A stretch of 64,000 nucleotides of DNA from an uncultured Acidobacteriota bacterium (GCA_937864465.1 CALMJU010000044.1:935-64934), one strand, 5' to 3'; positions 9,987 through 17,156 are shown, numbered from the stretch's first letter. Notes: generated by a model from the sequence alone, not told the origin. Made by a program: numbers and translations.

Positions 9987-10682
9987 ATGGTTGCCCTGTT
10001 CGTCCTGCTCACGATCATCACCCTGCTTTCGATCGACTACTTCGTCCAGAGAGCCCAGTTGAGGAAGGCGAAGGCGCTCGGCGTCGTCCCCGAGAGCGCC
10101 CCGGCCTCTGCCGCCGTGCGGCCGATCACGGCGATCGACGAAGTCCCGGCCGGCGTCTTCCTGGATCCCGGCCACGTGTGGGCGCAGCTCGAGCCCTCCG
10201 GCGCGCTCCGAATCGGCGTCGACCGGATGCCGCTCGCCATCCTCGGCCGGCCCGATCGGATCGAGGTCCGCACCGAGGGAACGACGCTCCGCGCTGGCGA
10301 TCCGCTCGTCACGTTGTTCCGCGGGAATCGAAAGGTCGTGCTCCGATCCCCGGCGGACGGCGTCGTGGCCCGGGTCAACGCGGAGGCGAACCCCGAGCAG
10401 CTCGACCGGGACCCCTACGGGCGCGGCTGGCTCTACTGGCTCTCCCCACGGGACGTCTCCCCCGCCCTGAAGCGGATGCTCGTGGCGGACGAGGCGAAGG
10501 CCTGGGCCCGCGCGCAGCTCGCGCGGCTCAAGGAGTTCCTGGCCACGGGCGGAGCGGAGACCCAGCTGGTCGGCGCCACCGTCCAGGACGGCGGGGCTCT
10601 CGTAGAAGGGCTCTCGGACCATCTCGACGACGAGAAGTGGCAGCGCTTGGTCAACGAGTTCTTTCCGGCGACGGCGCGGTAG
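9987..10682 (+). CDS. membrane-anchored GcvH-like (glycine-cleavage H fold) protein, probably not lipoylated
   Basis: ORF 9927..10682. I prefer the ATG at 9987 because AGGAGG lies 6 nt upstream. N-terminal TM helix MVALFVLLTIITLLSIDYFV. GcvH-like core GHVWAQLEPSGALRIGVD....SPADGVVARVN....DPYGRGWLYWL. Confidence 0.7.
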   Translation: MVALFVLLTIITLLSIDYFVQRAQLRKAKALGVVPESAPASAAVRPITAIDEVPAGVFLDPGHVWAQLEPSGALRIGVDRMPLAILGRPDRIEVRTEGTTLRAGDPLVTLFRGNRKVVLRSPADGVVARVNAEANPEQLDRDPYGRGWLYWLSPRDVSPALKRMLVADEAKAWARAQLARLKEFLATGGAETQLVGATVQDGGALVEGLSDHLDDEKWQRLVNEFFPATAR

Positions 10683-10751
10683 ACTTCCTGCCGACGAGGC
10701 AGGTCGGTCCCGGATGCCGGGCCGGTGAACTCGCGAGCGGAGGCGATTGCC

Positions 10752-11528
10752 ATGAAGGTGGGGATTCTGACGGATCTTACGAAGTGCGTCGGATGCGAGG
10801 CATGCGTCTGGGCCTGCAAGGAAATCAACGAGCTACCCCGAGAGGACGGCGCCGCTAGGCTCTCGGGGACGACCTGGACCGCGATCGAGCGCCACGGGAA
10901 CGTCAACGTGAGGCGGCAGTGCATGCACTGCGAGGAGCCCGCCTGCGCGTCCGTGTGCCCCGTCGCGGCGTTCCAGAAGACCCCCGAGGGGCCGGTCATC
11001 TATCTCCCCGATCGATGCATGGGCTGCCGCTACTGCATGATCGGGTGCCCGTTCGGCATGCCCAAGTACGAATGGGACAAGCCGCTCCCCCTCGTTCGCA
11101 AGTGCATCCTCTGCTACGAGACCCGGGTCAAGAACGGCGGCCAGCCCGCTTGCACGGCGGCCTGCCCGGCGGGCGCCACGATCTTCGGCGAGCGGGACGC
11201 CCTGATCCGGGAGGCCCGCCGCCGGATCGAGGCCGAGCCGGGCCGGTACGTCGATCACGTCTACGGGATCTCGGAAGCCGGCGGTACGTCGGTGCTCTAC
11301 CTCTCCGGAGTGCCGTTCGAGAAGCTGGGCTTCCGCGTAGACGTGCGGGAAGATCCGTACCCGAAGCTCACCTGGGACATTCTCTCGAAGCTCCCGAGCG
11401 TGATCAGCGTGTGGGGCGTGAGCCTGCTCGGGATCTGGTGGATCACTCACCGCCGCGACGACGTCGCCGAGGCGGAATCGCACGGGCACGGTGGAAGTGC
11501 GGCGGGCCCGGACAAGGATCGGCACTGA
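10752..11528 (+). CDS. four-cluster 4Fe-4S ferredoxin subunit (HybA/DmsB/NrfC-like) with a C-terminal TM anchor
   Basis: Four Cys groups: CVGCEACVWAC, CMHCEEPACASVCP, CMGCRYCMIGCP, CILC...CTAACP. C-terminal helix LPSVISVWGVSLLGIWWI. GGAGG lies about 9 nt before the ATG at 10752 (alternative start 10725). No RR twin-arginine motif at either start. Confidence 0.85.
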   Translation: MKVGILTDLTKCVGCEACVWACKEINELPREDGAARLSGTTWTAIERHGNVNVRRQCMHCEEPACASVCPVAAFQKTPEGPVIYLPDRCMGCRYCMIGCPFGMPKYEWDKPLPLVRKCILCYETRVKNGGQPACTAACPAGATIFGERDALIREARRRIEAEPGRYVDHVYGISEAGGTSVLYLSGVPFEKLGFRVDVREDPYPKLTWDILSKLPSVISVWGVSLLGIWWITHRRDDVAEAESHGHGGSAAGPDKDRH

Positions 11529-15703: not shown

Positions 15704-15812
15704 CGGCGCCCCCCGCAGCGGCTCGGGTCCCCGCACGGCGGCAGGCTCCCGCGGAACGGTCCTCCGCCGCAACGTCCCGGTGCGAGCACCGGAAGGGTCG
15801 AGGTTCGCAGGA

Positions 15813-17156
15813 ATGAAGCCAGAGAGCGCGACCATCCTGATCGTGGACGACGAGTTCTCCGTCCGGGACTCCCTCTGCGGCTGGTTCCGCAAGGACGGCT
15901 ACCACACGGACACGGCCGAGAACGCCACCGAGGCGCTCCGGAAGCTCCAGGAGGCGGCCTGGGACGTCGTCCTGCTCGACATCAAGATGCCGGGCATGGA
16001 CGGCCTCGAGCTCCAGGAGAGGATCCACCAGATCGACCCGGAGATCGTCACCATCATGATCACGGCGTACGCCTCCGTGGAGTCCGCCGTGCAGGCGTTG
16101 AAGCAGGGGGCGTTCGACTACATCACGAAGCCGATCGACCCGGACGAGCTGAGCCACCTCGTCCGGCGGGCTCTCGACCAGCGGCGGCTGAAGAGCGAGA
16201 ACGTCCAGCTGCGGCAGAAGATCGAGCAGCTCTCGCAGCTCGGCGAGGTCGTCGGCGACAGCCCGCAGATGCAGAAGGTGCTCGAGCTCGTGCGCTCCGT
16301 GGCGGAGACCGACGCGACCGTTCTCGTGCGCGGCGAGAGCGGGACGGGCAAGGAGCTCATCGCGCAGGCGATCCACGCGAACAGCCGCCGCCGCTTCTTC
16401 CCGATCGTCCCGGTGAACTGCGGGGCGCTCTCGGAGACCCTCCTCGAGAGCGAGCTGTTCGGGCACGAGAAGGGGGCGTTCACCGGCGCCGCGTACCGCA
16501 GGAAGGGCCGCATCGAGATGGCGAACGGGGGGACCCTCTTCCTCGACGAGGTGGGAACGATCGCCCTGAAGACCCAGGTCGAGCTCCTGCGTGTTCTCGA
16601 GACGAAGGAGTTCACGCGGCTCGGGGGGACCCGCTCGACCCGGGTGGATTTCCGCGTCGTCTGCGCGACGAACCAGAACTTGGAGAAGCTGGTCGAGGAC
16701 GGCCAGTTCCGGGAGGATCTCTACTACCGGCTGAACGTCTTCAGCATCTACCTGCCGCCGCTGCGCGAGCGCCGCGAGGACATCCCGCTGCTCGCGCGGC
16801 ACTTCCTGCAGAAGTACTCGCTCCAGATGAACAAGGGCTTCACCGAGATCAGCCCCGAGGCGATGGACCTCCTGGTCCGCCACGAGTGGCCGGGGAACGT
16901 GCGAGAGCTGGCCAACGCCGTCGAGCGCGCCCTCGTCGTCGGCAAGCCCCCGGTGGTGCGGCCGGGCGACCTGCCGATGCGGATCGGCTCGCTCTCGGAG
17001 AATGTCCCGGCCGACTCGCTCGCGGCGATGGAGAAGACGCACATCGCGAGGATTCTCGAGCGGTCGAACTGGAACATCACGCGGGCCGCGGAGGTCCTCA
17101 AGATCGACCGCGTGACCCTGTACAACAAGATCAAGAAGTACGACCTGCGCAAGTAG
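15813..17156 (+). CDS. sigma-54-dependent response regulator (NtrC/AtoC family: REC, AAA+, Fis-type HTH)
   Basis: REC domain (ILIVDDE...VLLDIKMPGMDG); Walker A GESGTGKE; GAFTGA sigma-54 contact loop (EKGAFTGA); R-finger region; C-terminal HTH NITRAAEVLKIDRVTLYNKIKKY. Confidence 0.9.
   Translation: MKPESATILIVDDEFSVRDSLCGWFRKDGYHTDTAENATEALRKLQEAAWDVVLLDIKMPGMDGLELQERIHQIDPEIVTIMITAYASVESAVQALKQGAFDYITKPIDPDELSHLVRRALDQRRLKSENVQLRQKIEQLSQLGEVVGDSPQMQKVLELVRSVAETDATVLVRGESGTGKELIAQAIHANSRRRFFPIVPVNCGALSETLLESELFGHEKGAFTGAAYRRKGRIEMANGGTLFLDEVGTIALKTQVELLRVLETKEFTRLGGTRSTRVDFRVVCATNQNLEKLVEDGQFREDLYYRLNVFSIYLPPLRERREDIPLLARHFLQKYSLQMNKGFTEISPEAMDLLVRHEWPGNVRELANAVERALVVGKPPVVRPGDLPMRIGSLSENVPADSLAAMEKTHIARILERSNWNITRAAEVLKIDRVTLYNKIKKYDLRK

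Follow-up and report, generated by a model that had tools for sequence, protein, structure and literature searches.

A candidate quinone-pool-to-periplasm electron-transfer module with lysine-less GcvH-fold proteins and a haem-motif kinase in an uncultured Acidobacteriota bacterium

Modules made of an iron-sulfur (Fe-S) protein and an NrfD-type membrane subunit are a common quinone interface of anaerobic respiration, serving sulfur, nitrogen, arsenic, hydrogen and metal reduction. In Escherichia coli hydrogenase-2 the two subunits are HybA and HybB. The Desulfovibrio Hmc and Nhc complexes combine a periplasmic c-type cytochrome, a periplasmic four-cluster protein and an NrfD subunit. Cbc4 of Geobacter sulfurreducens (CbcS-CbcT-CbcU), proposed to be a quinone:cytochrome c oxidoreductase, consists of a c-type cytochrome anchored in the membrane, a 4x[4Fe-4S] protein and a subunit integral to the membrane (bioRxiv 10.1101/2025.04.14.648717). 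In Shewanella, SirC (Fe-S) and SirD (NrfD/PsrC-type) make up a quinol dehydrogenase that stands alone and supplies several periplasmic cytochromes (PMC11434368). A set like the one found here is part of DsrMKJOP, in which DsrJ is a trihaem cytochrome, DsrO an Fe-S protein and DsrP an NrfD subunit. Here we describe a seven-gene module (G1 to G7) with a core of this kind, encoded in a 64,000-nucleotide (nt) stretch of DNA from an uncultured Acidobacteriota bacterium (GCA_937864465.1 CALMJU010000044.1:935-64934). The whole stretch, a chromosome segment with 70% G+C, is called the window below.

The module lies at positions 9987-17696 of the window; all seven genes are read from the + strand, and no gap between them exceeds 90 nt. 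Each protein was searched against the Pfam and NCBIfam profiles. G1 (9987..10682) encodes a membrane-anchored GcvH-fold protein (Pfam GCV_H, 41.5 bits), G2 (10725..11528) a HybA/HmcB-like 4x[4Fe-4S] protein (Fer4_11 and related models; 16 Cys in four ferredoxin motifs) and G3 (11530..13167) a HybB/HmcC-type NrfD subunit fused to a c7 trihaem domain (NrfD 105.8 bits, Cytochrome_C7 49.1 bits). G4 (13175..13948) encodes a soluble GcvH-fold protein with a Cys4 motif (GCV_H, 54.8 bits), G5 (13997..15703) a sensor histidine kinase (HAMP, HisKA, HATPase_c), G6 (15780..17156) an NtrC-type sigma-54 activator (REC, Sigma54_activat, HTH_8) and G7 (17163..17696) an archaemetzincin-family Zn metalloprotease. 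G7 starts 6 nt past G6 and scores 152.5 bits against a cut-off of 145 for NF033823; HELGHTYGLVH was read in its sequence, in agreement with the HELGHxxGxxH motif, which is joined by Cys4. The original prediction, made from the sequence without database searches, had six co-directional, tightly spaced genes. Those six are arranged as it said, but the archaemetzincin gene also belongs to the set. Pfam and NCBIfam backed every element that it had listed.

On balance, and with moderate confidence, we favour the reading that the module is an inducible electron-transfer unit between the quinone pool and the periplasm, which would be switched on by a periplasmic haem sensor via sigma-54, with the GcvH-fold proteins as putative cytoplasmic regulators or adaptors. 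This and the other functional statements below rest on sequence, topology, neighbourhood and gene-fusion evidence.

The G2/G3 pair had been predicted to be the core of Psr/Nrf/Hmc/Qrc/ACIII-type complexes, and the profile matches agree with an Fe-S/NrfD core as found in Hyb, Hmc, Qrc, Psr and ACIII. For G2 the best named NCBIfam matches are HmcB (NF045715, 265.4 bits, cut-off 420) and HybA (NF008134, 209 bits, cut-off 263); for G3 they are HmcC (NF045714, 328.4 bits, cut-off 550) and HybB (NF008133, 305.7 bits, cut-off 450). All four cut-offs were missed. G2 is 39% identical to E. coli HybA, in an alignment that begins at HybA residue 34, past the HybA signal, and G3 is 34% identical to HybB. 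Like HybA, G2 has 16 Cys and a C-terminal transmembrane (TM) anchor, and its four [4Fe-4S] motifs start at residues 21, 66, 98 and 127; like HybB, G3 has a ten-TM NrfD core, with a Pfam NrfD score far above the gathering threshold of 25.8 bits. Compared with hydrogenase-2, the module lacks HybO/HybC and the twin-arginine translocation (Tat) signal of HybA, and it adds an eleventh helix, the c7 domain and the GcvH-fold accessories to the HybAB pair. Hmc and Nhc provide the best NCBIfam matches and follow the same logic; in the module, however, the cytochrome is a fused trihaem c7 domain and not the 16- or 9-haem HmcA/NhcA, and HmcD, HmcE and HmcF have no counterparts.

Cbc4 was compared by description only. 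Its CbcS is a separate NapC/NirT-type tetrahaem cytochrome in contrast to the fused trihaem c7 domain, and the accessible part of the source mentions no GcvH-like genes, dedicated kinase/sigma-54 pair or archaemetzincin. Against DsrO and DsrP the module proteins score 98.8 and 44.8 bits, far under the cut-offs of 200 and 350, and no gene for a counterpart of DsrM (haem-b membrane subunit) or DsrK (CCG-domain protein) was found in the cluster with Pfam. GcvH-like subunits have not been reported for SirCD or DsrMKJOP. Since no match to a named respiratory subunit reaches its curated equivalog cut-off, the genes are relatives of HybAB/HmcBC and not members of these families, and by these scores the homologues are not assigned to an already characterised complex. 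No named NrfD complex with this subunit set appears in the accessible text of a review of the family (PMC8076601), where the term 'glycine cleavage' is absent, and a full-text literature search found no paper on this gene combination, including NrfD with GcvH. The original prediction had recognised no named respiratory complex. That holds for the subunit set as a whole, but Cbc4, SirCD, DsrJOP and Nhc are named cytochrome/Fe-S/NrfD modules of a comparable kind. The core logic is thus that of Hmc/Nhc, Qrc, ACIII, DsrJOP, Cbc4 and SirCD and is not new; the accessory and regulatory parts are new. Unreported in those systems are the lysine-less GcvH-fold subunits, the c7-NrfD fusion, the obligatory dihaem-motif kinase and the archaemetzincin, as is an Fe-S subunit that has no signal and no carrier nearby.

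G3 has ten TM helices with a cytoplasmic N-terminus; a hand count on the translation gave 22 Lys and Arg in the inside loops and three in the outside loops. An eleventh helix (12766-12825, residues 426-445) leads to the c7 domain (12955-13167), which has three CxxCH motifs and six His and passes both its profiles (TIGR04257, 57.3 bits, cut-off 40; PF14522, 49.1 bits, cut-off 24.8). The c7 domain should be periplasmic because the attachment of c-type haem requires an outside location. The hand-counted topology, with the eleventh helix ending outside, argues for the canonical orientation of G3, so that its ten-helix core is predicted to have the HybB topology, in which both termini are inside, with the quinone site toward the periplasm. 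Residues for the quinone site and two proton half-channels of HybB have been proposed, and changes of R89, Y99, E148 and H184 in HybB affect hydrogen oxidation, according to the review (PMC8076601). From the HybB residues given there, D58, D109, S129, E133, R89, Y99, Y141, E148, H184, S186, S187, E291, K198 and R329 are conserved in 76-82 of 82 G3 sequences. The c7 fusion is optional in the same set: 24 sequences have three haem motifs, three have six, and the 55 with none also lack the eleventh helix. The fused c7 domain, which had been named as the only periplasmic redox partner, is present in this genome but in only 27 of the 82 sequences of the family. In some variants a separate c3/c7 multihaem cytochrome gene adjoins the module. 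Two tandem c7 domains (six CxxCH) were seen in the G3 homologues of three loci from Myxococcota and similar groups (L008, L009 and L011), which also have an additional GcvH-like paralogue upstream.

A tblastn search with the seven proteins found the same gene set at about 80 genome loci, which belong to at least nine phyla, so the synteny of G1 to G7 holds well beyond the window. The carriers in these 80 loci are Acidobacteriota, Myxococcota, KSB1, Calditrichota, Bacteroidota/Ignavibacteria, Kryptonia, Gemmatimonadota and Latescibacterota, and further look-ups extended them to Myxococcales and Bdellovibrionota. The closest relative is an Acidobacteriota metagenome-assembled genome (L001), with 87-98% protein identity across the cluster. 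DNA sequencing runs place the source organism in sediment and wastewater. The recurring set has between one and three genes for TM-anchored GcvH-like proteins, together with those for the Fe-S protein, the NrfD subunit, the kinase, the sigma-54 regulator and the archaemetzincin. The NrfD subunit may or may not have c7, and a Cys-rich GcvH-like gene of the G4 type is often, not always, included. The order of the genes varies. The regulators are upstream in L019, L022 and L057 and convergent in L025-27, and G1 is at the far end in L032. The archaemetzincin gene adjoins the module in most loci, including the rearranged ones, where it lies directly after G3 (L019), convergent (L025-27) or upstream (L057). 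Since the gene set survives rearrangement, the genes appear to be functionally coupled and not merely inherited as an operon. On a 3.48-Mb contig, unrelated toxin-antitoxin genes flank the module, which places its borders at G1 and G7.

The families are large. In a search with G3, 8,000 word-sharing candidates were scored and 7,888 matched at E<=1e-10; these probably include other HybB/NrfD-type proteins, and the best 120 of the matches are nearly all NrfD-c7 fusions. The G1 family comprises at least 1,223 clusters at 50% identity (E<=1e-30). The recurrence of the module is far above chance. As the original prediction stated, no molybdopterin, hydrogenase or other catalytic gene was found in the cluster with Pfam and NCBIfam, and no catalytic or large cytochrome subunit (HybOC, HmcA, QrcAB, PsrA, ActA/B1) is adjacent either in the window cluster or in the roughly 80 related loci.

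A search for the exact sigma-54 consensus gave 0 matches in the window. A -24/-12 promoter emerged when mismatches were allowed and conservation across loci was considered: TGGCCCGGCTCTTGCC at 9928..9943 (+), 44 nt upstream of the G1 start codon. The element is invariant in an alignment with loci L002-L004, and most of about 70 loci, across phyla, have TGGC-N8-TTGC at a distance of 55-85 nt upstream of their first GcvH-like gene. Two inverted repeats, GTTGA-N5/7-TCAA(C), were read at 9692-9706 and 9713-9727 (+), within an AT-rich spacer. Both repeats, candidate upstream activator sites for the sigma-54 regulator, align with equivalents in L002-L004 and precede the -24/-12 element by about 220-250 bp. 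Together, the repeats and the -24/-12 element have the classical layout of a sigma-54 promoter with putative upstream activator sites. No intrinsic terminator was found on the coding strand within the cluster; the sole + strand match is upstream of G1 and the sole match inside the cluster is on the opposite strand. A scan for sigma-70 promoters and terminators was uninformative.

The two-component system directly after the pair and G4, with haem-c motifs in the periplasmic loop of the kinase, had also been predicted, and the domains and motifs of G5 and G6 bear this out. G5 has CVVCH (14420-14434) and CSSAPCH (14549-14569) between its two TM helices. The second motif, 43 residues after CxxCH, is Cx4CH here and CxxCH in some homologues. 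Both motifs are present in almost all of about 70 homologues; in the open reading frame (ORF) of L001, CxxCH was the only one within the 330 residues scanned. In a 31-sequence kinase alignment M75, C128, C131, H132, C171, C176 and H177 are invariant; CxxCH is invariant at the first site, and the second motif, Cx4CH or in some CxxCH, is present throughout. An AlphaFold2 (AF2) model of the sensor region (predicted local distance difference test score, pLDDT, 88) has a single Cache/PDC-like fold. Foldseek matched it to the WalK and CitA sensor domains and to the Geobacter haem-c sensors GSU0935 and GSU0582 (3b42, E=9.5e-5, with WalK better). With Pfam the window kinase has a weak sCache_3_2 match (19 bits), and its homologues reach PF21563, a family based on those Geobacter sensors, only marginally (27.5 bits, cut-off 27); a PDB sequence search with the sensor domain gave no match. 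Haem-c sensors, including forms with two motifs, have been described in Geobacter and Anaeromyxobacter, and GSU0599 is listed among them as a periplasmic, PAS-like haem-c sensor that has a second haem motif (PMC3831638). In a 2026 preprint haem-c Cache sensors act as nitric oxide (NO) sensors (PMC12889525).

G6 matches REC (112.7 bits), Sigma54_activat (238.6 bits) and HTH_8 (50.8 bits), and GAFTGA was read in its translation. It is under every named equivalog cut-off; the best score is 497 bits for AtoC, against 714. The regulatory analogue is cbcBA of Geobacter, a quinone oxidoreductase operon that is read from a sigma-54 promoter, needs BccR (REC-AAA+-HTH) and is induced as the redox potential falls (bioRxiv 10.1101/2021.04.15.440034). 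CbcB, however, is a dihaem b-type protein (HydC/FdnI-like) and not NrfD, and the regulators are likened to BccR by description only. A dedicated redox-sensing regulator was part of the original prediction; a sensor system with haem motifs is indeed there, and its link to sigma-54 is made concrete by the conserved -24/-12 element and the shared repeats. The archaemetzincin, the -24/-12 promoter, the Cx4CH motif and the absence of the lipoyl lysine had been missed.

Under our preferred reading, the kinase would respond to the redox state of the periplasm or to a haem ligand, for example NO, and would phosphorylate G6, which would activate the -24/-12 promoter. The induced G2-G3 pair would then move electrons, in either direction, between the menaquinone pool and periplasmic carriers, and proton movement through G3 may be coupled to this transfer. 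In this genome the c7 trihaem domain would be the periplasmic entry or exit point of the electrons. Turnover or processing of a component of the module is one possibility for the archaemetzincin.

Two GcvH-fold proteins were predicted to bracket the core pair. Fold and positions were confirmed, but it had not been noticed that both lack the lipoyl lysine. The Pfam GCV_H scores of G1 and G4 are above the gathering score, whereas the NCBIfam GcvH equivalogs were missed (34-62 bits, cut-offs 116-117). The AF2 model of G1 (pLDDT 87) has a target-normalised template modelling score of 0.87 to Thermus thermophilus GcvH (1onl), and a fold search with it listed only GcvH/lipoyl-type entries, with the C-terminal extension unmatched. 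G1 and G4 are true GcvH folds. When they were aligned to 1onl, the position of the lipoyl-Lys was Asn in G1 and Thr in G4, and no conserved Lys was found there across 81 (G1) and 24 (G4) homologues; a role as lipoate carriers was rejected because of the missing lysine. Further differences from GcvH and LbpA, which have the same fold, are the TM anchor of G1, the Cys4 motif of G4 and a helical C-terminal extension of about 80 residues, common to both proteins, with an invariant DGG. Arg115 is conserved in G1 together with DGG. The N-terminal Cys4 motif of G4, C-x-WM-x-AG-x5-YKLCDR-x-F-x-C-x2-CP, is kept in 24 homologues.

From its conserved start at 9987 (MVALFV...), G1 enters a TM helix at once, which is followed by a K/R cluster. 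This order places the N-terminus outside and the domain in the cytoplasm, a location confirmed by a variant in which a receiver domain stands between the helix and the GcvH barrel. Being cytoplasmic, G1 and G4 would not be part of a periplasmic electron path. A Tat signal on G1 was considered and rejected: the RR of the longest ORF is upstream of the conserved MVALFV start, and in many loci the upstream stretch contains stops or lacks RR.

A GcvH fold beside an electron-transfer complex also brings to mind the lipoate/sulfur redox system sHdr-LbpA, in which case G1 and G4 would be lipoyl or thiol carriers between the cytoplasm and the membrane complex. The confirmed fold is in line with such a system, as are a rhodanese gene downstream of the related module in a Gemmatimonadota genome (L017) and a metagenome protein, P0348, in which domains of this kind are fused to HdrD-like parts. 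We nevertheless consider it highly improbable. The lipoyl position is Asn or Thr and conserved as Lys in neither family, the domains of P0348 also lack the hairpin Lys, and no lipoate ligase or Hdr gene is in the cluster; NrfD subunits, moreover, have no cofactor with which to pass electrons across the membrane to a cytoplasmic carrier.

P0348 itself (1,391 residues) has three tandem lysine-less GcvH-like domains, with no Lys in the hairpin, together with FAD_binding_4/FAD-oxidase_C, a 4Fe-4S dicluster and two CCG domains. Judged by its domains, it is a GlcD/HdrD-like oxidoreductase with built-in GcvH-fold modules, and the fusion indicates that the lysine-less GcvH-like domain recurs in redox enzymes.

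In a sister variant of the module, each of the two GcvH-like proteins has a canonical receiver domain fused to it (REC-GcvH and TM-REC-GcvH). Fusions of this kind are encoded in at least 567 metagenome stretches. Five sister loci were inspected, namely the Gemmatimonadota genome L017 and four metagenome contigs (L087, L121, L133 and L142); the fusions are at 5273-7192 in L017, at 5001-6164 in L087 and at about 4100-6160 in the other three. An NrfD gene adjoins REC-GcvH in all five, and L017 and L087 also have the Fe-S gene there. A multihaem cytochrome is encoded in four of the five (all but L087). Four have a HAMP/HisKA kinase, with dihaem motifs confirmed in L017 and L133; no kinase gene was found on the L087 fragment. 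Neither a sigma-54 activator nor an archaemetzincin was among the ORFs scanned in the five loci. A full-text search, judged by titles and abstracts, found no paper on a REC-GcvH fusion.

REC-GcvH fusions beside NrfD and a kinase suggest that the GcvH-fold domain is the point of contact between signalling and the membrane complex, and it is because of this gene-fusion evidence that we propose a regulatory or adaptor role for G1 and G4. More speculatively, the two proteins would be regulatory or adaptor subunits located at the cytoplasmic face, and in the sister variant the same kinase would address the GcvH-fold proteins directly via the fused receiver domains. A wider form of the proposal is tentative and less likely than not: the lysine-less GcvH fold would be a new regulatory or output domain on the cytoplasmic side of NrfD quinone oxidoreductases, and the dihaem kinase would control the complex by two interchangeable routes, via transcription and sigma-54 in the window and via phosphorylation of REC-GcvH in the sister variant. 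The mechanism may be gating of the N-side proton path or of the assembly of the NrfD complex.

In another reading, the Fe-S/NrfD pair would be primarily a sensory device and not a respiratory conduit; it reads the redox state of the quinone pool, in this view, and signals through the GcvH-fold proteins to the kinase and regulator, with the output genes elsewhere. The constant linkage of the module to a two-component system, the receiver domains on the GcvH-like proteins of the sister variant, the lack of a catalytic subunit and the Cys4 motif of G4, which could be redox-sensitive, are all consistent with this. We regard it as rather improbable because the sigma-54 promoter precedes G1-G3, which are hence targets of the regulation, and because the kinase has its own predicted periplasmic dihaem sensor. 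Four clusters and a fully conserved HybB proton path, which a sensor would not need, fit an energy-transducing enzyme.

The C-terminal TM helix of G2 is always followed by an NRR or KRK cluster, and in the 30 homologues with the clearest helix the mean number of Lys and Arg rises from 1.6 over the 15 residues that precede the helix to 4.1 over the 15 that follow. This charge pattern matches that of HybA, which has its domain outside and its tail inside. The sister Fe-S protein in the variant module of L087, 42% identical to G2, has a twin-arginine signal (MDRRQFF). The basic tail, the canonical orientation of G3 and the Tat-bearing sister protein together lead us to place the Fe-S domain of G2 in the periplasm.

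Several points weigh against the quinone-pool-to-periplasm unit that we favour. No export signal, Tat or Sec, was found on G2 in about 78 homologues, which have at most about 12 residues before the first CxxCxxC, and no Tat-bearing partner is encoded within the conserved cluster. The periplasmic location of G2, and with it the whole electron path, is a prediction from homology and charge bias. Loci that lack the c7 fusion have no cytochrome gene in the cluster, so that with c7 absent in 55 of 82 sequences the cluster defines no periplasmic partner for most of the family. The region was found in none of the RNA-seq runs searched. Haem binding by the kinase is putative and based on its motifs, the argument for a role of the GcvH-like proteins is purely one of gene fusion and neighbourhood, and binding of G1 and G4 to G3 is likewise putative. 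G2 export is the main weakness of any reading as a self-contained conduit. That part of the original prediction is doubtful, given that the signal is missing in every homologue and the fused c7 in 55 of 82. Because G2 has no signal and the c7 domain is optional, the periplasmic partner, and possibly a Tat carrier as well, may lie outside the cluster.

DmsB and FdnH are hitch-hiking beta subunits, and G2, which starts at its first cluster motif and has no signal in any locus, looks like one of this kind. The pair could then be an orphan anchor of the HybAB type, with G2 hitch-hiking on a Tat-exported partner; the periplasmic enzyme, encoded at an unlinked site, would be a hydrogenase, a formate dehydrogenase or a molybdoenzyme. 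HybA/HybB and HmcB/HmcC as best named matches, the 34-39% identity to E. coli HybB and HybA, and the lack of a cytochrome in the cluster of most family members would all suit an anchor of this type. Set against it are about 80 loci in nine or more phyla that never have an adjacent catalytic gene, and scores under both the Hyb and the Hmc equivalog cut-offs; in about one-third of the loci, one or two c7 domains are fused to G3 or multihaem cytochromes adjoin, which points to cytochromes as the partners. No hydrogenase was among the window ORFs in a partial scan. We therefore judge the orphan anchor unlikely and retain the cytochrome-linked electron-transfer unit. The gaps of larger loci were also considered as sites of a Tat partner; by eye, the inserts in L009 and L004, both on the opposite strand, encode a secreted protein with M23-peptidase-like sequence and a transporter of the major facilitator superfamily type, and they are unrelated.

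The module is abundant in uncultured lineages from sediment, soil and wastewater, and source annotations call the G3 homologues 'Ni/Fe-hydrogenase cytochrome b subunit' and the G1 homologues 'glycine cleavage system protein H'. Such labels can mislead metabolic reconstructions, so that metabolism of hydrogen or glycine is wrongly read from them. In Acidobacteriota, Myxococcota and other phyla the module would be a candidate marker for electron transfer of the extracellular or low-potential kind, provided that it is a redox-triggered conduit from quinone to periplasm. Should the GcvH-fold proteins be regulators, they would represent a new means by which a respiratory complex is switched; phosphorylation of REC-GcvH, if it occurs, would mean a respiratory complex with a built-in two-component switch and a new, widespread class of response regulators.

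Directly upstream of the module, at 3522-9607 (+), is a SUF operon for Fe-S assembly. It comprises genes for a SufB-like protein (3522-5759), SufD (6565-7902), the cysteine desulfurase SufS (within 6648-9155) and a NifU/SufU-like protein (9206-9607), all on the + strand. The close relatives L002 and L003 likewise have the SufU-like gene upstream, but it was not detected in more distant loci. Directly after the archaemetzincin gene are two ORFs with no Pfam match, at 17771-18421 and 18444-18887 (+); the product of one begins with a Sec-like signal (MKRWMILAGMGMALAAGAAATVRA), and that of the other has a TM helix at its N-terminus.

Elsewhere in the window, a gene for an Nramp metal transporter adjoins one for a protein of about 830 residues with PRC-barrel, MgtE_N and CBS domains (22191-25958, -); this pair looks like divalent-cation homeostasis, unrelated to the module. 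A single ORF of 2,900 codons at 48258-56960 (+) has one subtilase (Peptidase_S8) domain at residues 689-1074, and the remainder has no Pfam match. At 62001-64000 the G+C content drops to 0.58, compared with about 0.70-0.76 elsewhere, and the GC skew is strongly negative; this stretch may be a foreign or RNA-gene segment.

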